Shown here: piece by piece, positions 903 to 31,182 of the stretch | Position numbering within the stretch: position 1 is the first letter of the stretch | Layout of the letters: each line of letters begins with the position of its first letter | Source of the DNA: Chloroflexia bacterium | GTDB taxonomy: Bacteria; Chloroflexota; Chloroflexia; Thermomicrobiales; CFX8 | Length of the DNA: 64,000 nt | Reading direction: 5' to 3' | Assembly: GCA_030431755.1 (NCBI GenBank) | Contig: JAUIIK010000005.1 | Coordinates: 2,801 to 66,800, forward strand | Program-made: the position numbers and the translations under genes | Notes under the pieces: model-generated | Database searches by the model: none | What the model was told of the DNA's origin: nothing | The model's input: the letters and a program-made list of their open reading frames with translations, nothing else

Positions 903-3788
903 CTAGGCCTCCAGCGGCTCCGGATCGACCTCTTCGGGCAGCACGTCCAGATCATCGTCGCGCGCGGCGACGCCGATCAACAGCGACTGCTCGACGATAT
1001 CCCGGCGCACGAGCTCCTCGGCGTCTGCCAGCGCCTGTCGCAGTGGGTGATCTGGACGGGCGTTGGAGAGCATCTCGCGGACCTGGCGCATGAGATCGAG
1101 CGTCTTGTTGAAGGTCATCACCAGATCGCCCTCACTGAGGTCGATCTTCTCGATGATCGTCGAGATGTTCGCGCCGCCGCACCAGGCTCGGACGCCACCG
1201 TAGAAGCTAGCGTGGTGGCCGCTGGAGATGAACAGGCCGTTGGAACGCTCCGCGCCGACGATGTGCTTCTCGAGATCTTCCAACCGCCGGCGGAGTAGCA
1301 CGAGGTGCTTGGGCAACGTGTAATTGTTCCGCAAGCGGCTGTCCCGGTCGTAGGCGTACCAGGAGAAGACCTCCGCCAGCTCCGCGCCGCTGAGCTTGTC
1401 CAGCAGGCCGCGGTCGATCATCTCGCAGATGATCAAGCCGTTGTTGTCGAAGACGTCGGCCAGCAGATCGGTCTTGGCCGTCGGGTAGCCACGGTGCAGA
1501 TAGCCAAAGCGGTGCAGCACGTCGCGAATGCCGCGAATCAGGCTACGGATGCGTTCGGCTTCGCTGTCGAGCTCGGCCTTCAGCGACTGTTCGGAGCGGT
1601 CGCGTTCCTTCTCGAGGGCGATGGCGTAGCGAATGTTGTTCTGGTGCTCTTTCCGGCGCTCGCAGGCGTGACATGGATGGGCCTCGCGGGCATCCCGCGT
1701 CTCCTGGAGCTGCCGACGCGCGTCCTGCAGATCGTTCTCCAGCTCGGCTCGCGCGGCTTGTTGCTGCGCTTCGACCTTCTCGCGATGCTCGACGATCAGC
1801 TGGTCAAGGTCGGGCAACGGAAATGCGTCAACCTGGTCATGCACGGCGGTGACAACATCGAGCGGCATGAAGGTCATCAGGTCGCGCACCGGGCCATCGA
1901 GGACAGTGAGCTCCTCGGGCACATCGACGACGAACTCGCGCGCCGGCAGGTAGTCGATGTCACGGTACTGCTCCAGCCGCACGACCGACGTGCCGAAGAG
2001 GAACAGGCCAATCCCGCCCATGCCCTCGGGCCGCCCCAGGAAGACGCCCCAGCCGCCCCTGCGTGAGTGGACGACGACGCCTGGGCCACTGGTCCGGAAG
2101 AGGCGGCGCAATGCCTGCCGCCCCGGTTCCGACCAGGGGCGCTCGTCAACACGCATGTTCAGGTTGTCGCGGTCCTTCTCAATCGTCCGTGTCAGGTTGC
2201 TCAGGGCGTTGATCGAGCGGTTGAAGCCGCGATACTCGTCGAGCAAGTTCTCGCCGTCGTCGTAGCCGACCAGGCAACCACGCGGGATCTCCTGCGAGCG
2301 TTGCTCCAGGGCGACGATGTCCTCTTCGAGCTCGCGTGCCCGGCGGGCTGACTGGTGTTGCGCGAGCGACTGCTGCAACAGGAAACGTACTCGATTGCCG
2401 TGCGGCGGATCCCAGAGGTTGAGGACGGTGTTGTAGCGGATCGCGAAGGAGCTCATGACCGGTTCGAGCTCACCTGTCGCAATCTCCAGCATCGTCGAGA
2501 AGCGCACCCAGGGGGAGTATGGCGTGACGACGTGGCCGACCTCGTCCATCCCGCGCCGCCCGGCGCGCCCGGCCATCTGCTGGAACTCGTTCGGAATCAG
2601 CAGCCGGCGCTGGCGGCCATCCCATTTGTTCAGACGTCCGATAACGACCGACCGCGCCGGCATGTTGACACCGAGCGCCAGGGTATCGGTGGCAAAGACC
2701 ACCTGCATCAACCCGCGGCTGAACAGCACCTCGACGAGCTGCTTCAGAATCGGCAGCAACCCGGCATGGTGAAAACCGATGCCGCGCCGCGCGAAGCTGA
2801 TGATGTTGGCGACCTGTTCGAGCTGGCGGTCCTCCGGGCGCAAGCCGCGCAGCTGGCTGTCGATGACCTGCTCGATCTGCTCCGCCCGTTCGTCGTCCGG
2901 CACGAAGCGTGTCCGCATCATCGAGACGCGCTGGGCGTACTCCTCGCAATCGCGCCGTGAGAAGAGGAAGTAGATCGCCGGGAGCATCTGCCGCTGGTAC
3001 ATCGCCTGGAGGATCTCCCACGGTTGGGGTTCCTCCAGCTCCGCTTGCCGGCGGATTTCAGGCGTAATGCCACCACGGCGCATCTGCCGCCGGATCTCAC
3101 CGCCATACTTCGAGAAGTCGCCGACGATGTCGCCATTGTGATCAATGACCGGCCGCAGCTTCTTGTCCAGGTAGTAGTAGAGGGCCAGTGGAATCGCTCG
3201 CTCGTAGTGGGTAATCAGATGGATCGGGCGGTGGGTCCTGCCAATCCAGCCAGCGATCTCGTCGGCGTTCGAGACCGTCGCCGAGAGGCAGATGAGCTGG
3301 ACGTGCTCAGGGCAGAGGATGATCGCCTCTTCCCAGGTCGTGCCGCGCTCGGTGTCGGCGATGTAATGCACCTCGTCGAAGATGACACAATCGACCGTCT
3401 CGATCTCCCAGGGCGTCTGTAGCAGCATGTTGCGCAGTACTTCGGTGGTCATCACGAGGATCGGGGCGGCAGGGTTCTCGGTGACATCTCCCGTGAGCAA
3501 TCCCACCTGGTCGCGGTAGATTTCGCGCAGGTCTCGGAACTTCTGGTTGGAAAGCGCTTTAATTGGCGTCGTGTAGATGACCCGGCCCTGGCGGCGGAAG
3601 GCTTCGTAGACGCCGAACTCGGCGACGAGGGTCTTACCGGTGCCGGTCGGCGCAGCGACCATCACCGAGTCGCCACCCATGAACTTCTCGAGCGCCTCGC
3701 GCTGGAACGGGTCGAGGTTGAATGGGTAGAGCGCCTCGAACTGGTCGATGATCTCAGCAGTCGTCGGTTGCGAACTCGTGGATGTCAT
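903..3788 (-). CDS. Ski2-like DEVH-box RNA helicase (HelY-type, with DSHCT-like C-terminal region)
   Basis: 961-aa ORF with Walker A AAPTGTGKT, DEVH box (VIFDEVHYI), helicase C motifs (FHHAGL, QMAGRAGRRG) and a long C-terminal helical region. Confidence 0.85.
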   Translation of the reverse strand: MTSTSSQPTTAEIIDQFEALYPFNLDPFQREALEKFMGGDSVMVAAPTGTGKTLVAEFGVYEAFRRQGRVIYTTPIKALSNQKFRDLREIYRDQVGLLTGDVTENPAAPILVMTTEVLRNMLLQTPWEIETVDCVIFDEVHYIADTERGTTWEEAIILCPEHVQLICLSATVSNADEIAGWIGRTHRPIHLITHYERAIPLALYYYLDKKLRPVIDHNGDIVGDFSKYGGEIRRQMRRGGITPEIRRQAELEEPQPWEILQAMYQRQMLPAIYFLFSRRDCEEYAQRVSMMRTRFVPDDERAEQIEQVIDSQLRGLRPEDRQLEQVANIISFARRGIGFHHAGLLPILKQLVEVLFSRGLMQVVFATDTLALGVNMPARSVVIGRLNKWDGRQRRLLIPNEFQQMAGRAGRRGMDEVGHVVTPYSPWVRFSTMLEIATGELEPVMSSFAIRYNTVLNLWDPPHGNRVRFLLQQSLAQHQSARRARELEEDIVALEQRSQEIPRGCLVGYDDGENLLDEYRGFNRSINALSNLTRTIEKDRDNLNMRVDERPWSEPGRQALRRLFRTSGPGVVVHSRRGGWGVFLGRPEGMGGIGLFLFGTSVVRLEQYRDIDYLPAREFVVDVPEELTVLDGPVRDLMTFMPLDVVTAVHDQVDAFPLPDLDQLIVEHREKVEAQQQAARAELENDLQDARRQLQETRDAREAHPCHACERRKEHQNNIRYAIALEKERDRSEQSLKAELDSEAERIRSLIRGIRDVLHRFGYLHRGYPTAKTDLLADVFDNNGLIICEMIDRGLLDKLSGAELAEVFSWYAYDRDSRLRNNYTLPKHLVLLRRRLEDLEKHIVGAERSNGLFISSGHHASFYGGVRAWCGGANISTIIEKIDLSEGDLVMTFNKTLDLMRQVREMLSNARPDHPLRQALADAEELVRRDIVEQSLLIGVAARDDDLDVLPEEVDPEPLEA

Positions 3789-6122: not shown

Positions 6123-6314
6123 CGCCGGGCAGCGACCTGCGCGACAGAGAGCCATTGAATCGCCCACATGGGCGTCAAGATCCGAACACCAATCCTCAGT
6201 CGAATCTGCCGTGTTAGCGCCTTGGTAGACCAGTGTGCGTATAATTCCGACCGCATCACTCGGGATTCTGCCCGAATGGGAATTGCGTAGCTGGTTACTG
6301 GAAGGCGTAGGGGA

Positions 6315-7463
6315 ATGGACGTTCGCAGGTTTTCACGGCGCAGGCTCTTGAAGTACTCGCTAGCCGGCTCGTCGGCACTTTTGGCCCCATGGCTGCTGGC
6401 GGCATGTGGTGACGATGACGACGACGAGGATGCCGGCGCTGAAGCAGACCCGGAGGCCGACCCGGAGGCTGATCCTGAAGCTGACCCAGAAGCGGATCCC
6501 GAAGCCGACCCTGAATCCACTGAAGAGTTGGAACCAGGAAGTCTGATCGTCTACTCCGGTCGCTCGGAGGAGCTCGTCGGTCCGCTAATCGAGCGTTTCC
6601 GCGATGAAACAGGTATCGACGTTCAGGTGCAATACGCGGGAACCGCCGAGCTCGCGGCAACGCTGCTCGAAGAGGGTGGCAACACACCGGCAGATCTGTT
6701 CTTCGCCCAGGATGCCGGGGCGCTGGGCGCGGTCGCCGCAGAAGGCATGTTCGTCGAGCTGCCGCCGGAGATCCTTGACCGCGTACCGGAACGCTTCAGT
6801 TCCCGCGAGGGATTGTGGGTCGGACTGAGTGGCCGGGCGCGCGTCGTTGTCTACAACCGCGAGACCGTAAGTGAGTCCGATCTGCCCGCGTCGATTCTCG
6901 ATTTCACCGACTCGGAGTGGTCGGGGCGGCTTGGCTGGGCGCCGACGAATGGGTCGTTCCAGGCCTTTGTGACCGCGTTGCGCGTACTCGAAGGCGACGA
7001 TGTCGCGCGCGACTGGCTGGAAGGCATCCAGGCAAACGACGCTGCCGCCTACTCCGGCAACACCCAGGTCGTCCAGGCGGTCATCGATGGCGAGGTCGAT
7101 GCGGGCTTCGTCAACCACTACTACCTGTACCGCTTCGAGGAAGAGGCCGGCGGCGAGGTCGCAGCCGCCAACTACTGGTACCGCGACGGCGGGCCAGGCG
7201 CGTTGATCAACGTTGCGGGGGCTGGAGTCATCGACGGCGCAGAGCACCAGGACGAAGCGCTTCAACTCCTCGAATACATGTTGAGCGACGATGGGCAGCG
7301 CTACTTCGCCGACGAGACATTCGAGTACCCGCTCGCTTCCGGCATCGACGCCGACCCACGGCTGGCGCCGCTCGACGAGATCGAAACCCCGGATCTGGAT
7401 CTCTCGGATCTGGATGATCTGGACGGTACACTGCAACTGTTGACCGATGTCGGGTTGATCTAG
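6315..7463 (+). CDS. ABC transporter substrate-binding lipoprotein (family 1, Fe(III)/thiamine-type)
   Basis: Twin-Arg signal plus lipobox (RRRLL...LLAAC), an acidic linker, then an SBP_bac_1-like body (VYSGRSEELV...FFAQDAGAL...VNHYY). Confidence 0.75.
   Translation: MDVRRFSRRRLLKYSLAGSSALLAPWLLAACGDDDDDEDAGAEADPEADPEADPEADPEADPEADPESTEELEPGSLIVYSGRSEELVGPLIERFRDETGIDVQVQYAGTAELAATLLEEGGNTPADLFFAQDAGALGAVAAEGMFVELPPEILDRVPERFSSREGLWVGLSGRARVVVYNRETVSESDLPASILDFTDSEWSGRLGWAPTNGSFQAFVTALRVLEGDDVARDWLEGIQANDAAAYSGNTQVVQAVIDGEVDAGFVNHYYLYRFEEEAGGEVAAANYWYRDGGPGALINVAGAGVIDGAEHQDEALQLLEYMLSDDGQRYFADETFEYPLASGIDADPRLAPLDEIETPDLDLSDLDDLDGTLQLLTDVGLI
6447..6518 (+). repeat. six tandem 12-nt units encoding (DPEA)x5 + DPES in the lipoprotein linker
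   Basis: Units are GACCCGGAGGCC / GACCCGGAGGCT / GATCCTGAAGCT / GACCCAGAAGCG / GATCCCGAAGCC / GACCCTGAATCC. The peptide is conserved while third codon positions vary. Confidence 0.9.
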
Positions 7464-7472
7464 GAGCTTCAA

Positions 7473-9089
7473 CTGGCGACGAGCCGCCGGGCAGGCTGGA
7501 GAAACAGGGAGTGGCTCGCCATTTCCGGCGCACCCGCCCTACTCTGGCTCCCGGCGGTCGCCATCGCGCTGGCAGTCAACCTGCCGATCGCCTACCTCGT
7601 CATCCGCAGCTATCAGGGCGGCACGGAGTTGCTGGATCTGCTCTGGCGCGACCGTACGCTCACCCTGCTCAGGAACACGGTCCTCCTGACAGCGATCGTT
7701 ACCACTGCGTCAGTGCTCATCTCGCTGCCCTTTGCCTGGCTGGTGCAACGCACTGACCTGCCCGGCCGGCGCTTTTGGGGGATTGCCGGCGTGCTGCCGC
7801 TGGCGATCCCGAGCTATGTCGGGGGCTACGCGATCATTGCCGCGCTGGGACCGCGTGGCATGCTGCAGGGCTGGCTCGAACCCTTCGGCGTCGAGCGTCT
7901 TCCGGAGATCTACGGCCTGACCGGCGCATCCATAACTCTGACCGCTCTGATCTATCCCTACGTCTTGATCACGCTCAACGCTGCACTCCGTGGCATCGAT
8001 CCGGCCTATGAAGAAGCTGCCCGCTCGATGGGCTACGGCCCCTGGCGCACCTTTCTCTTCGTCGATATCCCGCTGCTGCGCCCGGCCATCGCCGCCGGCG
8101 GGCTGCTCGTGGCGCTGTACACGATTGGCGAATTCGGCGCCGTCTCGCTCCTGCGCTTCGACACCTTCACTCGCGCCATCTACACCCAGTACACCAACGC
8201 ATTCGACCGCTCGCTGGCGGCAGGGCTGGCGCTGCTCCTGATCAGCCTGACCGTCATCGTGCTCATCGTCGAAGCGATCACCCGTGGCCGGGCGCGCTAC
8301 TACCGCGTCTCGGCGGGTGGCGGACGCCCGGTCGCACGGCTAGAGCTCGGGCGCTGGACCGCGCCGGCCCTGGGCTTCTGCGCGCTGGTTGTGCTGCTGT
8401 CGCTGGTCATGCCGCTAGGCGTCATCGTCTACTGGCTCGCGCGCGGCCTAAGCGCAGGCGAGCCCTTGCGGCTGGTATGGGACGCCGCCTGGCAATCGTT
8501 CTACGTCTCCGGGCTGGCAGCGCTTGTGGCGATCGTCGTCGCGGTTCCGATCGCAGTGCTGGCGGTGCGCTTTCCAGGACGGATGAGCGCCACCGTCGAA
8601 CGCGCCAGCTACGCCGGGTACGCGCTACCGGGGATCGTCGTCGCGCTGTCGCTCGTCTTCTTCGGCGCGAACTACGCGCCCTGGATCTACCGCACGATCG
8701 GCATGCTGGTGCTGGCTTACACCGTGCGTTTCCTGCCGCAAGCTGTCGGCACGGTTAGAACCTCGCTTCTGCAAATCAGCCCGAGAGTCGAGGAGGCCGC
8801 TCGCAGCCTCGGGTACTCCGGCCCTCGCACCTGGTTGTGGATCACCGCGCCGCTGGCGCGCAAAGGTTTGCTCAGCGGCGCGGCGCTCGTCTTCCTGACC
8901 GTGATCAAAGAACTGCCGGCAACGCTACTGCTCCGACCAATCGGCTTCGACACGCTCGCAACCCGCATCTGGGGCGCTGCTTCGGAGGGCTTCTGGGCAC
9001 GAGCCGCCGCGCCGGCACTGATCCTGATTGCGGTCTCGGCCTTCGCGATGATCTTCATCGAGGGCGTTGGCCGCGAGCGAGAAGGCTAG
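7473..9089 (+). CDS. ABC transporter permease, duplicated (two-domain) FbpB/ThiP-type
   Basis: Two MetI-like permease halves. The frame is open from 7464 and encodes the first TM (APALLWLPAVAIALAVNLPIAYLVI), but the first ATG/GTG/TTG is at 7629. CTG at 7473 lies 6 nt after the AGGAG at 7462-7466, so the start is inferred. Confidence 0.7.
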   Translation: MATSRRAGWRNREWLAISGAPALLWLPAVAIALAVNLPIAYLVIRSYQGGTELLDLLWRDRTLTLLRNTVLLTAIVTTASVLISLPFAWLVQRTDLPGRRFWGIAGVLPLAIPSYVGGYAIIAALGPRGMLQGWLEPFGVERLPEIYGLTGASITLTALIYPYVLITLNAALRGIDPAYEEAARSMGYGPWRTFLFVDIPLLRPAIAAGGLLVALYTIGEFGAVSLLRFDTFTRAIYTQYTNAFDRSLAAGLALLLISLTVIVLIVEAITRGRARYYRVSAGGGRPVARLELGRWTAPALGFCALVVLLSLVMPLGVIVYWLARGLSAGEPLRLVWDAAWQSFYVSGLAALVAIVVAVPIAVLAVRFPGRMSATVERASYAGYALPGIVVALSLVFFGANYAPWIYRTIGMLVLAYTVRFLPQAVGTVRTSLLQISPRVEEAARSLGYSGPRTWLWITAPLARKGLLSGAALVFLTVIKELPATLLLRPIGFDTLATRIWGAASEGFWARAAAPALILIAVSAFAMIFIEGVGREREG

Positions 9090-9422
9090 TCACTCATACG
9101 AAACCGGGTTGGACGGTTCTTGTTGCCAGGTTCGCGTGGTCGCAACCGGCAATGCACCGCATCGCGGCTACCGGTAGCGCCCGGACCATACCGTACCGGA
9201 GTGCCCTGCCACTGTAGCTGCGACGCGATGCGTCGCTCAACCCGCCGCGCTCACTAGCGGCAGATGAAGAACTCATCACGACGAATCGGTATCGCGGGCA
9301 TCGGAGCACTGGTTCGTATGTGCCTGGAAATCGCATTCTTCCGGGCTATGATCTAAACTAGACCTGTTGGGTAGGAATTAGCGTCAATTGTTCGCCAGTC
9401 GAGGCGGGAGGCCCGAGAGACG

Positions 9423-10562
9423 ATGAGCGAGGGCATCGTTCTCCAGAATGTCACGAAGTTCTTTGCCGGTTCCGACCGCGCGGCCGTCAGCAATCTCACG
9501 CTCAACGTCGAACCTGGCGAGATTCTCGCCCTGCTTGGACCGAGCGGGTGTGGCAAGACGACAACCCTGCGCCTGATCGCTGGGTTCGAGCGTCCCGATG
9601 CCGGTTCCGTCGACATCGCGGATGCCACCGTCGCCGCTGAATCGACCTTCGTCGCGCCGGAACGACGTGGCGTCGGGATGATCTTCCAGGAATACGCGCT
9701 TTTCCCGCACCTCACCGTTTCCAAGAACATCATGTTCGGTTTGCGCTCGATCCCGCGCCGCAAGCGACGCGACCGTCTCGACGAGCTGCTTGAACTCACG
9801 GGCCTGACCGAGTTCCAGAACCGCTATCCATACCAGCTCTCGGGCGGCCAGCAACAACGCGTCGCGATGGCACGCGCCCTTGCGCCCCGACCGCATGTCC
9901 TCCTACTCGATGAGCCATTCTCGAACCTGGACACCGAGCTGCGGCTCCAGATGCGAGTGGAGATCCGCGACCTGATCAAGCAGCTCGGAACAACGGCGAT
10001 CATCGTCACCCACGATCAACAGGAAGCGATGACCGTCGCCGACCGCATGGCCGTGATGCTGAATGGCACCGTCCAGCAGATCGACACGCCAGAGGTGATC
10101 TACCACTATCCGGCGAACCGGGCCGTTGCGCGCTTCGTTGGGCAGGGCACCTTTGTTCCGGCCCGTATCACCGGCGATCTGGCCGAGTCTGATCTCGGTC
10201 AGTTTGAGATCCAGGAACATGGTCCACAGGATCAGGTTGACCTGCTCATCCGACCGCGCGATGTGTCTATCGAAGTTGACCCGGACGGTGTTGCCGTTGT
10301 CACCCAGCGCACATTCCACGGGGCGGAGACGACCTACGTCATTCAGCTGCCCTGCGGCGTCCAGCTTCAGTCCAGTCAACCGTCATATGTCTCGATCGCG
10401 CCGGGGACTCGTGTCAGCGTCCGCTGCAACCGAGCGCGCCTGGCAGCCTATGGCGACGACGCGCGCGTCGCGCTCACCAAACCGATGAGCTTCGGCGGTA
10501 TGCATGTCGATTCACCATTCGATATCGGGAACGACACCCTCCACGTAGCCGGTAGCGACTAG
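9423..10562 (+). CDS. ABC transporter ATP-binding protein with C-terminal TOBE-like domain (FbpC/PotA-type)
   Basis: Walker A GPSGCGKTT, signature LSGGQQQRVA, Walker B LLLDEP, plus an extra C-terminal domain of about 140 aa. Confidence 0.85.
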   Translation: MSEGIVLQNVTKFFAGSDRAAVSNLTLNVEPGEILALLGPSGCGKTTTLRLIAGFERPDAGSVDIADATVAAESTFVAPERRGVGMIFQEYALFPHLTVSKNIMFGLRSIPRRKRRDRLDELLELTGLTEFQNRYPYQLSGGQQQRVAMARALAPRPHVLLLDEPFSNLDTELRLQMRVEIRDLIKQLGTTAIIVTHDQQEAMTVADRMAVMLNGTVQQIDTPEVIYHYPANRAVARFVGQGTFVPARITGDLAESDLGQFEIQEHGPQDQVDLLIRPRDVSIEVDPDGVAVVTQRTFHGAETTYVIQLPCGVQLQSSQPSYVSIAPGTRVSVRCNRARLAAYGDDARVALTKPMSFGGMHVDSPFDIGNDTLHVAGSD

Positions 10563-16459: not shown

Positions 16460-16482
16460 TACAATGGGGCCGGAGGTGAATC

Positions 16483-17418
16483 ATGGCTATCTACGAAATC
16501 GGGCCAACCCGCGAGAACCTGCACGGCACGTTCTCGGCGGAGATCGAACCGGTCCTGACGATTGACCCCGGCGATACCGTCCGCTTCGAGACGCTCGACG
16601 CCGGCTGGGGCCTGGAGGCCTTTCCCGCAGACGGTGGCGACCGCAGGGTGTTCGAGCCGCAGGACTCCGACCTGGACGCCGGCCATGCCCTGTGCGGGCC
16701 GGTCGCTGTCCGTGGCGCGCGGGCCGGGCAAACGCTCGTTGTGCGGATCGACGAGCTGCGGACCGGCACGTTCGGCTTCAACGCTGCTGGCGGGCCGAAC
16801 CCCAGCCGCGCCGAACCGTTCGGCTTGAGCGCCGACCTGCGGCTGCTCTTGCGCTGGGAGCTGGACCGCGAACAGATGATCGCGACGAATCAACACGGCC
16901 ATAAGGTCGCGATGCGCCCGTTCCTCGGCGTCATGGGGCTGCCGCCCGCGGCGCCGGGACACCACCCGACAGCGCCGCCGCGGGTGACCGGCGGCAATCT
17001 CGACTGCAAGGAGCTGGTCGCAGGCGTCAAGCTGTATCTGCCCATCGCTGTCGATGGCGCACTCTTCTCCACAGGCGACGGCCACGCGGCCCAGGGCGAC
17101 GGCGAGCTCAGCGGCACGGCCATCGAATGCCCGATGGAGCTGGCGGCGCTGACCTTCGACGTTTTGGGTGACATGCCAATCGAAGTCCCGCACGCCCTGA
17201 CGCCTGACGCCTGGCTCACCTTCGGCGTCAACGAAGATCTCGACGAGGCGATGCACCAGGCCGTCAACGCCATGCTCGATCTGATCATGCGGCTGCACGA
17301 CGTCGACCGGGGCACGGCATTGGCGCTCGCCAGCACCGTCGTCGATGTCCGGGTGACCCAGGTCGTCAATGGGGTCAAGGGCTGCCATGTGGTGCTTGGG
17401 CATGGCGCGATCCGGTGA
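16483..17418 (+). CDS. acetamidase/formamidase family protein
   Basis: GGNLDCKEL..G..LYLPI...GALFSTGDGHAAQGDGE..GTAIE motif block typical of the FmdA/AmdA family. Confidence 0.85.
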   Translation: MAIYEIGPTRENLHGTFSAEIEPVLTIDPGDTVRFETLDAGWGLEAFPADGGDRRVFEPQDSDLDAGHALCGPVAVRGARAGQTLVVRIDELRTGTFGFNAAGGPNPSRAEPFGLSADLRLLLRWELDREQMIATNQHGHKVAMRPFLGVMGLPPAAPGHHPTAPPRVTGGNLDCKELVAGVKLYLPIAVDGALFSTGDGHAAQGDGELSGTAIECPMELAALTFDVLGDMPIEVPHALTPDAWLTFGVNEDLDEAMHQAVNAMLDLIMRLHDVDRGTALALASTVVDVRVTQVVNGVKGCHVVLGHGAIR

Positions 17419-17489
17419 GTGAGGGAATAGGGAGCAGGGATTAGAGATTAGAGCTGTCAGACGCACAGCATTGAAACGAGGAGGGATCA

Positions 17490-18266
17490 ATGGCGACTGA
17501 GACGAGCACACGAGGCCGCGCGGGTCAGGCGCTGCCGGATTTCACGCTTCCGCTGCTGGACGGCGGTGAGCTTGAGGTTGGGGCGCTACGCGGCAAGAAG
17601 CTGCTGCTCTTCTTCTGGGGCTCCTGGTGAGGCTGCCGCGCGCAACTGCCAGGCTGGCAGGAGTTCTATTCGCGGCACAAGTCCGATAGTTTCGAGATCG
17701 TCTCCATAGCGCTCGAACACGGTGGTGGCCATCTGGCGCAGCCATTTGTCGCAGCCGCGAACGCCGAGTACCCGACTGTCGTTGACGAAGACGGCCTGAC
17801 GACCACGCTGCTCGATTTCCGCGCCGTCCCGAACGGCGTCCTTGTCGACGAAGCAGGCGTCATCCGTTATGCCAAGTACGGCGGCTTCTCAGTCGACAAA
17901 CCCGAGGACGTCGCGGTTGTCGAGCGCTTCCTGGCCGGTGAAGATCCCGGTGAGAGCCCGGCGCATGACGGCCCATACCAGTTGACCGGCGCAGAACAGG
18001 AGCTCGTGCAGACCAAGCTGCGGCTCGGCCACGCACTCAAGGAGCTTGGGCGCAAGGGCGAGGCGCTGGCTGTCTGGACCGAGGCGCTGCACCGCGATCC
18101 CGAGAATCTTGTCATCCGCAAGCAGATCTGGTCCGAGAAGTACCCGGAGAAATTCCATCCCGAGATCGACTGGGCCTGGCAACGCGAACAGCTCAAAGCC
18201 GAACGCGAGGCGGAGATCGCCGCCGGTATCTGTGGTCCCGACGGTTGCCCGGTGCCCTGGGCCTGA
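17490..18266 (+). CDS. TlpA/ResA-like thioredoxin-fold redoxin with C-terminal TPR-like tail; in-frame TGA (17628-17630) at the first redox-Cys position (candidate selenocysteine)
   Basis: ATG at 17490 follows GAGGAGGGA. The translation is ALPDFTLPLLDGGELEVGALRGKKLLLFFWGSW[TGA]GCRAQLP...AVPNGVLVDEAGVIRY. The frame stays open for 212 codons after the TGA and has no start codon until 17982. A SECIS-like hairpin follows. Confidence 0.6.
17634..17677 (+). promoter_or_regulatory. SECIS-like stem-loop 4 nt downstream of the in-frame UGA
   Basis: Outer 7-bp stem UGCCGCG (17634-40) / CGCGGCA (17671-77). Inner 5-bp stem CUGCC (17646-50) / GGCAG (17656-60). Apical loop AGGCU. Confidence 0.45.
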
Positions 18267-18294
18267 TCGAGCCTTTCCAGCGCCCGATCATCCA

Positions 18295-18329
18295 GAAGCC
18301 GCCTGCGAATGAACCTTGCAGGCGGCTTC
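18295..18329 (+). terminator. hairpin after the redoxin gene (possible terminator; no clear U-tract)
   Basis: Perfect 12-bp stem GAAGCCGCCUGC / GCAGGCGGCUUC with an 11-nt loop. Confidence 0.5.
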
Positions 18330-18472
18330 GCTTGTCGGCCCTACGAGTCGGTCGAATCCACACTCACCACGGATAACATAAGATATATTAATATATTGCT
18401 TTACGTTTCTCAGTATTTCGTGTACGTTTGTCGAGCCGCAATGAGGCGGTAGCTGCACGAACAGGAAGCGCG

Positions 18473-19447
18473 ATGAACGCGATCTCGGTCAGCGATCTGA
18501 CAAAGACGTACGGCAACGGTGTCGAAGCGCTACGCGGCGTCTCGTTCGAGGTGGCTCAGGGTGAAATCTTCGGTCTCCTTGGGCCCAATGGCGCAGGCAA
18601 GAGCACGACCGTCCGCATCCTCGCGACGTTGACCCAACCGGGCGGCGGCGCTGCTATCGTCGGCGGCCACAATGTCATCGACGATCCGGCCGGGGTGCGC
18701 CGCAGCATCGGCTACGTCGCCCAGGCGTCCGGCGTCGACCGCTGGGGCACTGGTCGGGAGAACCTGGTCCTCCAGGCGCAGATCCTGCGCGTCCCTTCCG
18801 GCCAGATCGGGCAACGTGTCGACGAACTGCTTGCGTGGGTCGGCCTGACCGACGCCGCCGACAAGCTGGTCAACACCTACTCCGGCGGCATGAAGCGCCG
18901 CATCGACATCGCCATGGGGATTATCCACGAGCCGGCCATCCTCTTCCTGGATGAACCGACAACCGGCCTCGACCCGGAAACGCGCGCCGCGCTCTGGACC
19001 GATCTCGACGGGCTGCGGCGCGACCGCAACCTGACGGTGCTCTTGACAACCCACTACCTCGAAGAGGCCGACCGGCTCTGCGACCGGCTGGCGATCGTCG
19101 ACCAGGGCCAGGTCGTCGTCGAGGGCACCCCGAACGATCTCAAAGCCGCGATCCGTGGCGACACCGTCACGCTCGAAGTTGGCGAGAGCACTGCGGCGGC
19201 CCGCGAGACACTGCGCGGCCTGGACGACGTCTACGAGGTCATCCCGGACGGCGGCAGCGTCATCGCCAACGTCGCCCGTGGCGCAGCCGCGATCCCACAG
19301 CTGGTCACGGCGCTGGAGCGCGCCAGCATCGATGTCCAGGAGGTGACGCTGAGCCGGCCATCACTCGACGATGTCTACCTGCAATACACCGGTCACCGTT
19401 TCGTGCCGGGTGAAGCCACCGGCACAGGAGAAGAGCCGCGACGATGA
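18473..19447 (+). CDS. ABC-2 type exporter ATP-binding protein (DrrA-like)
   Basis: Walker A GPNGAGKST, signature YSGGMKRR, Walker B LFLDEPTTGLD. ATG at 18473; the ORF is open from 18428. Confidence 0.85.
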   Translation: MNAISVSDLTKTYGNGVEALRGVSFEVAQGEIFGLLGPNGAGKSTTVRILATLTQPGGGAAIVGGHNVIDDPAGVRRSIGYVAQASGVDRWGTGRENLVLQAQILRVPSGQIGQRVDELLAWVGLTDAADKLVNTYSGGMKRRIDIAMGIIHEPAILFLDEPTTGLDPETRAALWTDLDGLRRDRNLTVLLTTHYLEEADRLCDRLAIVDQGQVVVEGTPNDLKAAIRGDTVTLEVGESTAAARETLRGLDDVYEVIPDGGSVIANVARGAAAIPQLVTALERASIDVQEVTLSRPSLDDVYLQYTGHRFVPGEATGTGEEPRR

Positions 19448-20217
19448 TGACCTTCTTTCCTGACACTTACCACCTGACGCTGCGCCACATCCGCACAACC
19501 CTGCGCATTCCGATCTGGATCTTCGTGACGCTGACCCAGCCGGTCATCTGGCTGACGCTCTACGGCCAGCTCTTCCAGCGGGTCGTCGAGATCCCCGGCT
19601 TCGAGGGCGACAGCTATATCCAGTTCCTGACGCCCGGTGTCATCATCATGACCGCCTTCTTCGGCTCGGCCTGGGCCGGGATGGGCATCATCGAGGATCT
19701 CCAGCACGGCGTCATCGACCGGATGCTAGCGACCCCGGTCAACCGCGCTTCACTCATTGCCGCGCGGGTCGTCCACGCCTCGCTGACCGTCGCGATCCAA
19801 TCGATCATCATCATCGTTCTGGGCATGGTCCTGGGCGCGAGCGTGCCTGGCGGCGTGCCCGGCGTGCTGGCAATTCTGCTGCTTGGCGCGCTGCTTGGGG
19901 CAGGCTTCTCGGCGATCTCGAACGGCGTTGCCCTGCTGACCCGCCGCGAGGAGACGTTGATAGCAATCATCAACTTCTTCGGGCTGCCGCTCGTCTTTCT
20001 CTCGACAGCCTTCATGGCCTCCGACCTGATGCCGGACTGGATCCGCTTCCTGGCCCAGGGCAACCCGGTCAACTGGGCGGTCAACGGCGCCCGCGACGCG
20101 ATGGTTGGCGAGAATTGGGCGACCACCTGGGCTTATGTCGCGCTGCTCTCCGCCTTCGTCCTCGTCGCCGGCTTCTTCAGCACCCAGGCGTTTCGGATCT
20201 ACCAGCGCTCGGCGTGA
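19444..20217 (+). CDS. ABC-2 type transporter permease (DrrB-like)
   Basis: Six predicted TM segments. ATGA start/stop overlap with the upstream ATPase. Confidence 0.8.
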   Translation: MMTFFPDTYHLTLRHIRTTLRIPIWIFVTLTQPVIWLTLYGQLFQRVVEIPGFEGDSYIQFLTPGVIIMTAFFGSAWAGMGIIEDLQHGVIDRMLATPVNRASLIAARVVHASLTVAIQSIIIIVLGMVLGASVPGGVPGVLAILLLGALLGAGFSAISNGVALLTRREETLIAIINFFGLPLVFLSTAFMASDLMPDWIRFLAQGNPVNWAVNGARDAMVGENWATTWAYVALLSAFVLVAGFFSTQAFRIYQRSA

Positions 20218-31106: not shown

Positions 31107-31182
31107 GGGGCTGTAGCTCAGCTGGGAGAGCGCAACACTGGCAGTGTTGAGGTCAGGGGTTCGAGCCCCCTCAGCTCCACCA
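31107..31182 (+). tRNA. tRNA-Ala (anticodon GGC), CCA encoded
   Basis: Hand-folded full cloverleaf: 7-bp acceptor stem with G3:U70, D stem GCUC/GAGC, anticodon loop CUGGCAG, T arm AGGGG-UUCGAGC-CCCCU, discriminator A, CCA at 31180-82. Confidence 0.9.

Follow-up and report, generated by a model that had tools for sequence, protein, structure and literature searches.

One published selenoprotein family is defined by the motif UGC, in which U stands for selenocysteine (Sec) (Zhang and Gladyshev 2008; PMC2398784, PMC9312934, PMC13188914). It is listed there as peroxiredoxin-like, "Prx-like (UGC-containing)", is placed in pfam00578 with 46 Sec sequences in the Global Ocean Sampling (GOS) data, and is described as commoner in non-marine samples (PMC2398784); most such selenoprotein families were predicted computationally (PMC9312934). 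Here we examine a gene at positions 17490 to 18266 of a 64,000-nucleotide stretch of a Chloroflexia genome (Thermomicrobiales, CFX8; contig JAUIIK010000005.1), referred to below as the window, in which a TGA codon interrupts the frame of a thioredoxin-fold protein. An earlier note on the window had read this frame as a candidate selenoprotein gene. We estimate at roughly 0.9 the probability that the gene is intact and encodes a selenoprotein of 258 residues, which would be a short representative of the UGC-containing TlpA/Prx-like thioredoxin-fold family. The basis is an intact gene, a conserved TGA and hairpin, selection on both sides of the TGA, linkage to sel genes in relatives, and homologs with Cys at the Sec position. 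The features are collected in Table 1.

By motif, domain and match to a curated model, rather than by alignment to the exemplars MDE0950781.1 and MBL6689828.1, the window protein is a member of the UGC-containing family. It shares with the family of Zhang and Gladyshev an AhpC-TSA/TlpA-like fold, Sec at the first redox position, the U-G-C motif, and a TGA followed by a hairpin, and the non-marine bias of that family fits the soil or terrestrial-type Chloroflexota metagenome-assembled genomes (MAGs) found here. It differs in that Arg is nearly as frequent as Gly as the middle residue in the present clade (G 27, R 26, N 3, and S, Q, H, V and A once each), so that "U-x-C" fits the clade better than the published name "UGC-containing". 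The accessible portions of the published family accounts mention neither the C-terminal helical domain and CGPDGC tail nor a link with sel genes or another selenoprotein, all of which are described below.

The best-matching curated model is NCBIfam NF041054 ("WAxxUGC_long, ResA-like WAxxUGC motif-containing protein", an equivalog of 354 positions; 1.2e-38); a full-text literature search returned no paper using the name WAxxUGC. The window protein scores 133.3 bits and does not reach the 300-bit cut-off, and five other clade members tested score 119.7–159.4 bits. In the alignment the redoxin domain, from residue 12 on, falls on profile positions 81–194, and the C-terminal IRKQIW region falls weakly on 278–324. 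Both share W-[AG]-x-x-U-G-C, which reads W-G-S-W-U-G-C in the window protein (G for A) and begins W-A-S-W or W-G-S-W in its relatives; the window protein, however, has 258 residues and is without the first ~80 positions of the model. Because the scores stay below the cut-off and those positions are missing, we regard the clade as a shorter sister subfamily and not as the equivalog itself.

The closest solved structures are those of ResA, StoA, TlpA and CcmG (DsbE) (1st9, 3erw, 1jfu, 3kcm), which have the same fold and the same FW(A/G)SW-C..C-R..LP context. These are CxxC proteins, membrane-anchored or secreted, with cytochrome c, Sco or the spore cortex as targets, whereas the window protein has Sec, one residue fewer in the motif, no N-terminal hydrophobic segment, and an extra C-terminal tail of ~120 residues that includes a helical domain. 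The CxxC site that marks ResA, TlpA, StoA and DsbE is thus replaced by U-G-C, and the NCBIfam scores against these models all lie below their cut-offs (ResA 61.5 of 170 bits, StoA 51.1 of 210, TlpA 37 of 230, DsbE 25.5 of 123). With Cys substituted at the TGA, Pfam assigns residues 11–136 to AhpC-TSA (PF00578, 6.8e-15) and Redoxin (PF08534, 1.5e-14), and sequence matches in the PDB include StoA (3erw, 1.1e-14), ResA and TlpA. HMMER alignments to the three best PDB matches (StoA, ResA-like and DsbE-like) pair the Sec column with the first Cys of W-C-x-P-C and leave a one-residue gap at its Pro, which makes U-G-C a CxxC minus one residue. The placement of the TGA at the first redox Cys, as the earlier note had it, is therefore borne out both by the WCxPC of the solved structures and by full-length non-Sec relatives, which have Cys there. 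The motif typical of peroxiredoxins, PxxxT/SxxC(U), is absent: the window protein reads F-F-W-G-S-W-U, with neither Thr nor Ser at –3 and no upstream Pro. No peroxiredoxin NCBIfam model matches it at E ≤ 0.01, and those that match the relatives tested do so weakly (E from 4e-4 to 1.6e-9), far below cut-off.

The AlphaFold2 model of the homolog P0001 (59% identity to the window protein) has a mean predicted local distance difference test score (pLDDT) of 79.5 and consists of a thioredoxin fold and, after it, four helices at positions 170–247. Foldseek ranks 3kcm, 3erw and ResA highest for this model, all of the TlpA/ResA/StoA/DsbE type, with a target TM score of ~0.8; the fold is closer to TlpA/ResA/StoA than to true peroxiredoxins. 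Pfam finds weak TPR matches at residues 176–211 of the window protein, and the C-terminal helical domain is common to the window protein, the Cys forms and NF041054 positions 278–324. Beyond it lies the CGPDGC motif, in which C248, P250, D251 and G252 are invariant in our protein alignment (A1) and C253 nearly so; the tail of the model is of low confidence, and a contact between CGPDGC and the active site is not claimable from it. The motif is present in members from Thermomicrobiales, Chloroflexia and Bacillaceae, and absent from eight Dehalococcoidia-type members (L050, L053, L055, L057, L059–L062) and from the Fimbriimonadales member L056, which stop soon after a ...WQ(K/R)EQ motif. The CGPDGC tail is accordingly an accessory module. 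The N-terminus of the window protein, MATETSTRGRAGQALPDF, has no hydrophobic stretch by inspection, and the subfamily is apparently cytoplasmic.

The frame opens at ATG 17490 as MATETSTRGRAGQALPDFTLPLLDGGELEVGALRGKKLLLFFWGSW, meets TGA at 17628–17630, continues as GCRAQLPGWQ... and stays open until TGA 18264–18266. Around the Sec codon the peptide reads ...LLLFFWGSW-[TGA]-GCRAQLPGWQ..., with W-[TGA]-G-C at 17625–17636, and apart from that TGA the window copy has no stop or frameshift within the frame. All of these positions agree with those given in the earlier note, as does its statement that 117 codons after the TGA contain no start, the first ATG, GTG or TTG being TTG 17982. The program-made list of open reading frames (ORFs) shows the gene as a 46-aa piece (17490–17630) and a 94-aa piece from that TTG, and one could suppose that the locus makes two products, with a peptide of 46 aa ending at the TGA and the C-terminal part translated from a start of its own. 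Database annotation treats nearly all homologs in this way. A search of 5.8 billion proteins gave 277 matches; among the 120 matches listed, the N-terminus is missing in all but one, the rest being 146–220 aa long where the query has 258, and no source name shown for listed homologs identifies a selenoprotein. In the loci with gene calls that we saw, a ~45-aa fragment stands beside a separate C-terminal ORF. Most of 15 inspected entries start at "L/M-PGWQ", a few residues past the TGA column, and others at MEH...; such variation is what artefacts would produce. A split here would moreover cut the thioredoxin fold at the active site, between beta-1 and alpha-1, and in the window the stretch without a start follows immediately. 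We consider two products extremely improbable.

The single full-length protein among the matches listed, P0001 (from the Joint Genome Institute, JGI), prints "FFWGSW-W-GCREQLPGWQ", with Trp at the Sec column, as does the protein entry P0181. Such entries, and the likelihood that the window sequence comes from a metagenome, would favour TGC or TGG as the true codon, misread at 17630 during sequencing or assembly. The DNA of P0001 (L001), however, has TGA at the printed Trp, which is therefore an artefact of the translation table, presumably from a code-4 model chosen for a short contig. Window positions 16473–19845 are also 100% identical over 3,373 bp to an independent Logan assembly (run ERR3428548, L068), TGA included, an outcome that favours the reading of the earlier note. 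Another relative, on a 131-kb NCBI contig (L002), has a stop at the same column, and every other locus has TGA. The chance of such an error is next to negligible.

Homologous loci were collected by scanning one genome per GTDB species with the C-terminal peptide patterns GICGPDGCP and FKVVPNG, a search that is therefore blind to the Sec column, and 63 loci were obtained. TGA occupies the column in 64 of 64 instances, with TAA and TAG each at 0. Wherever the N-terminal part lies on the contig, the context is W-[GA]-S-W-*-x-C-R-x-Q-L-P-[GV]-W-Q; in most of the 63 loci the tblastn match extends through the stop, and in nearly all a start codon is kept 42–48 codons upstream of the TGA. The hosts span at least eight higher taxa. 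They include MAGs of Thermomicrobiales, Chloroflexia, Dehalococcoidia and Limnocylindria, further members in Rubrobacter, Armatimonadaceae, Fimbriimonadales, Gemmatimonadota and Thermoanaerobaculia, and three cultured Bacillaceae (Halobacillus seohaensis, Robertmurraya beringensis and Virgibacillus kekensis). Compared with the window protein, the homologs share between 33% and 82% of their residues; the nearest genomes, at 82% and 80%, are Thermomicrobiales/Chloroflexia MAGs, which on this ground alone makes a member of the Thermomicrobiales the most likely source of the window.

Both flanks of the TGA are under purifying selection. Over 62 sequences, the 33 codons before it show 24961/20982/37272 differences at first, second and third codon positions, an excess at the third, and the 33 codons after it show a similar pattern (23717/17709/34738). 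Between the window and its nearest relative (L005), the Nei-Gojobori ratio of nonsynonymous to synonymous substitution (dN/dS) amounts to 0.10 for the whole gene, with 0.17 upstream of the TGA and 0.09 downstream. A Thermomicrobiales contig (L010, 2231–2464) also carries a further paralog, less closely related, in which the TGA is likewise present (LVAWASW-*-GCRRDLPVWQ) and which resembles the long Cys forms P0211, P0240 and P0267 with their large N-terminal domain.

An exhaustive search of 1.84 billion cluster representatives returned Cys forms of two kinds, C-G-C (P0133, P0211, P0240, P0245 and P0267) and other C-x-C (P0138, P0145, P0146, P0152, P0155, P0172, P0173, P0204, P0205 and P0209). 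Among those of full length, most have in common a C-terminal region resembling "IRKQ(I/L)W...PE(K/R)F...WQ". Since they have the same spacing as the Sec forms, they supply the Sec/Cys pair by which selenoproteins are classically recognized. The partner Cys is present in every Sec-form tblastn locus and invariant (T7, G8) in alignment A2, a gap-free alignment of the 66 nucleotides from the TGA onward in 62 distinct sequences. The earlier note had proposed aligning homologs at this codon, and the column holds TGA in all 64 loci and Cys in the full-length non-Sec relatives. It had also taken the non-canonical U-G-C spacing as a ground for doubt; the one-residue spacing recurs in every family member and is also the motif of the published family and of NF041054, so that it is a hallmark of the family and the doubt falls away. 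The conserved TGA, the Cys homologs and the recurring U-x-C spacing together support the reading of the gene as a selenoprotein gene.

A hairpin encoded directly downstream of the TGA offers a candidate Sec insertion sequence (SECIS). The minimum free energy (MFE) fold of 17628–17680 is exactly the two-tier hairpin that the earlier note had drawn, with a lower stem at 17634–40/17671–77, an upper stem at 17646–50/17656–60 and the loop AGGCU. In alignment A2, RNAalifold finds one consensus helix (columns 19–23/29–33), corresponding to the upper stem, and none of the 62 sequences departs from standard pairing at any of its five pairs. The helix starts 18 nt after the U of UGA, and the loop occupies nucleotides 24–28 counted from that U. 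Only pair 19–33 varies, as C-G (43), U-G (11) or U-A (8), with no mismatches; the Leu codon of the hairpin is always YUG, and the closing Gln codon is CAA only alongside UUG (Fisher p = 2e-5). The stem gains a sixth pair, G-C (columns 18–34), in 44 sequences; below it, most sequences also form a weaker helix (columns 13–15/37–39). The 7-bp lower stem is particular to the window, its position not being conserved in homologs. Of the hairpin first described, then, the apical stem-loop alone is conserved.

Within the loop, the G at position 25 never varies and is followed at position 26 by G or U. The codon that opens with these two bases codes for Gly or Val in all 62 Sec forms and in 2 of 15 Cys forms (p = 6e-13), Gly being found in only those 2 and the other Cys forms having A, S, L, R, E, I or F. 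That the Sec forms are limited to Gly/Val and the Cys forms are not marks this as a constraint on the RNA and not on the protein. In the SECIS of Escherichia coli fdhF, loop nucleotides G23 and U24 contact SelB. The hairpin studied here resembles that of fdhF in lying within the coding sequence directly 3' of the UGA, in the distance of its apical loop from the UGA (~23–28 nt), and in a loop G followed by U or G. It differs in that only a stem of 5–6 bp and a 5-nt loop are conserved, with no conserved bulged U identified.

Sec machinery lies close to the gene in cultured relatives. ARAGORN places a tRNA-Sec 4–6.5 kb from the redoxin gene in two Bacillaceae. In V. kekensis (L058) the order is selD, tRNA-Sec, selB (6273–8228), selA (8564–9967) and the redoxin gene, with its TGA at 10103; in H. 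seohaensis (L049), selD, tRNA-Sec, selB and selA lie within ~10 kb of the redoxin gene. The selD genes of both (L058, ~5780, – strand; L049, ~8180, – strand) have an in-frame stop at SSKGG-*-GCKIGPEDL, and the ORF list shortens them to 275 and 319 aa, respectively. The SSKGG-*-GC site is the classical Sec position of SelD, so these two selD genes are themselves Sec-containing. The SelD site likewise reads U-G-C. A further TGA-containing thioredoxin-like frame (...ILEFGADW-U-PGCRQL...) lies a few kb from the sel genes in each (L058, 1951; L049, 3699).

The idea that TGA here encodes a standard amino acid, such as the Trp of code 4 or the Gly of code 25, or is read through independently of Sec to give a protein without selenium, could appeal to the gene callers that put W into P0001 and P0181. 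Nevertheless, 22 of 61 family genes, that of the window among them, end in a TGA that is a true terminator, so the code has not been reassigned. The column is moreover the catalytic Cys of the solved CxxC relatives and Cys in the CxC homologs, the hairpin presents a SelB-type G-G/U loop at the canonical distance, and in Bacillaceae the gene belongs to a sel operon. Decoding as a standard amino acid is thus a decidedly remote prospect.

Several observations weigh against a selenoprotein in the window itself. Neither selA, selB, selD nor tRNA-Sec was found within the 64 kb, where the only tRNA is an Ala-GGC (31107–31182), and local tblastn searches of the window and of every locus, with the SelA, SelB and SelD of L058 and L049 as queries, gave matches only in those two Bacillaceae loci. 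At gathering threshold, Rfam reports on the window the tRNA-Ala alone. The folding energy of the hairpin, –21.3 kcal/mol, is unremarkable (z = –1.06, with 31 of 200 shuffles as stable), so that the hairpin cannot be judged from the window sequence alone and draws its significance from the comparison across loci. No experimental Sec insertion was found reported for any UGC-family member in the literature consulted. Family copies can also decay: L023 (2246–2260) is interrupted by a further TAG, four codons ahead of the Sec codon, L042 (~3542–3581) has an extra TGA 13 codons upstream together with a W-to-R change in the hairpin-encoding motif, and L048 and L063 end early and look decayed.

The decayed copies, and the missing machinery, are what one would cite for a pseudogene, in which a TGC or TGG codon of an ordinary CxC or CxxC redoxin had mutated to TGA and inactivated it; the earlier note had kept such a plain nonsense mutation as a real alternative. 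An identical TGA in all 64 loci, at identities of only 33–85%, and dN/dS of ~0.1 on both sides of it exclude that alternative in its plain form. The SECIS stem is intact with covariation, and the window copy, unlike the decayed ones, has no extra stop or frameshift. We regard a pseudogene as very improbable and retain the reading of an intact selenoprotein gene.

On this selenoprotein reading, UGA 17628–17630 would be read as Sec during translation. By analogy with the E. coli mechanism, SelB-GTP-Sec-tRNA(Sec) would bind the CUGCC-AGGCU-GGCAG hairpin at 17646–17660 (loop G25-G26), which is encoded by the invariant peptide L-P-G/V-W-Q, and deliver Sec to the ribosomal A site. We infer Sec insertion in the source organism, as well as the catalytic chemistry and the substrate; the catalytic role is proposed by analogy. 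Sec47, at the N-terminus of helix alpha-1, would act as the nucleophile towards a disulfide or peroxide substrate. Cys49, which sits nearer to it by one residue than is usual, would resolve the intermediate to a strained selenenylsulfide, which a thiol partner or the C-terminal Cys pair could then reduce. The likely activity of the protein is that of a thiol-disulfide or thiol-peroxide oxidoreductase, to which its conserved C-terminal helical domain and CGPDGC tail may contribute and, in many relatives, so may a second, adjacent selenoprotein, a W-U-P-Y-C Prx-like redoxin.

In at least 13 Thermomicrobiales/Chloroflexota loci and in a Rubrobacter MAG (L024), the gene for this second redoxin, whose TGA is also conserved (VLVFYRGDW-U-PYCNGQL), directly adjoins the U-x-C gene. 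The loci are L002 (9108–9851), L007, L009, L010, L016, L018, L021, L022, L024, L025, L027, L030, L046 and L051; the W-U-PYC redoxin is absent from the 64-kb window. It is of the U-x-x-C type with a C-terminal helical extension, and its best NCBIfam matches (thiol peroxidase, PrxU and SelL-related) are all below cut-off. With the two TGA redoxins adjacent, these genomes carry at least two selenoprotein genes. Variants of the second redoxin reading RSAxW-U-PYCKTQL occur in L039, L047 and L048.

In the 441-aa Cys form P0146, a C-Y-C family domain (residues 1–230) is fused to a homolog of the second redoxin with W-C-PYC (residues 262–438; E = 3e-20), a Rosetta-stone arrangement which hints that the two adjacent selenoproteins act together. 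From the adjacent gene in at least 13 loci, this fusion, and the position of the Bacillaceae gene last in a selB-selA operon, one might go on to picture the U-x-C redoxin as one half of a dedicated two-selenoprotein redox relay, with the strained one-residue selenenylsulfide of the U-x-C site (x = G or R) and the invariant CGPDGC tail as an internal electron-transfer chain, much as the C-terminal redox tail serves in thioredoxin reductase. We think this picture rather unlikely. Were it correct, the family would have a dedicated role, such as the handling of selenium or peroxide in connection with the Sec pathway itself, and not generic disulfide reduction.

The novelty of these findings is modest, the family having been known since 2008 and being curated at NCBI. 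New are the short subfamily below the curated cut-off, the near parity of U-R-C with U-G-C, the compact SECIS within the LP(G/V)WQ codons, the wide presence in Thermomicrobiales, and the linkage to a sel operon and to a second selenoprotein. Judging by this distribution, Sec is used by many Thermomicrobiales and other aerobic Chloroflexota. Because the cultured V. kekensis and H. seohaensis carry the gene in a sel operon, a family that has so far been computational becomes experimentally testable, and the natural U-x-C site is a case for the tuning of redox potential by a shortened CxxC combined with an S-to-Se swap. For annotation, full-length entries with "W" at the column are a handy flag for hidden selenoproteins, and the signature W-[AG]-S-W-TGA-x-TGY...YTG-CCN-G(G/T)N-TGG-CAR offers a simple rescue of misannotated genes.

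Table 1. Predicted features of the redoxin locus (window coordinates)
Feature	Position	Strand	Remarks
Shine-Dalgarno-like element GAGGAGGGA	17478–17486	+	3 nt between element end and start codon; read directly
Predicted selenoprotein coding sequence	17490–18266	+	258 codons including Sec47; terminator TGA 18264–18266; from translation
Thioredoxin-fold domain (TlpA/ResA/StoA-like), aa 11–136	17520–17897	+	Pfam, PDB sequence matches, homolog model
Predicted UGA Sec codon, residue 47, first redox position	17628–17630	+	TGA column in 64/64 loci
TGC codon of partner Cys (Cys49) of U-G-C motif	17634–17636	+	Cys in every Sec-form tblastn locus
Full hairpin with window-specific 7-bp lower stem (17634–40/17671–77)	17634–17677	+	MFE fold
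Conserved apical stem-loop CUGCC-AGGCU-GGCAG, codons L-P-G-W-Q	17646–17660	+	5 pairs kept in 62/62
C-terminal helical (TPR-like) domain, DPxN..IRKQIW..PEKF.P.ID..WQ signature	17982–18224	+	Weak Pfam TPR, homolog model, invariant columns in alignment A1
C-terminal CGPDGC motif (Cys248...Cys253)	18231–18248	+	Conserved columns in alignment A1
Possible terminator hairpin GCCGCCUGC-(11 nt)-GCAGGCGGC, then UUCGCUU	18298–18326	+	Read from sequence; low confidence

The possible terminator hairpin was not flagged by a consensus scan because of its weak U-tract. Upstream of the redoxin gene lies a gene of the acetamidase/formamidase family (16483–17418), and downstream lie an ABC ATPase gene (18428–19447) and an ABC-2 permease gene (19444–20217); no functional link between the redoxin gene and these neighbours is evident. 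At 63.5% GC, the GC content at third codon positions (GC3) proved too noisy a guide to further coding frames in the window that TGA might interrupt. The earlier note had also held that other genes in the window are broken. For the largest TAG-separated pair, at 7461, this does not hold, the pair being two adjacent genes, for an extracellular solute-binding protein and an ABC permease in the same frame (6291–9086, + strand); three other candidates gave no Pfam signal, and the genes that the note described as broken by TAA, TAG or a frameshift were not located. The tRNA-Ala(GGC) of the window (+ strand) lies ~13 kb downstream of the redoxin gene, and in relatives too such a tRNA follows ~7–8 kb downstream (L006, 18863–18938; L008, 17601–17676), which suggests a loose synteny between the window and these two loci.

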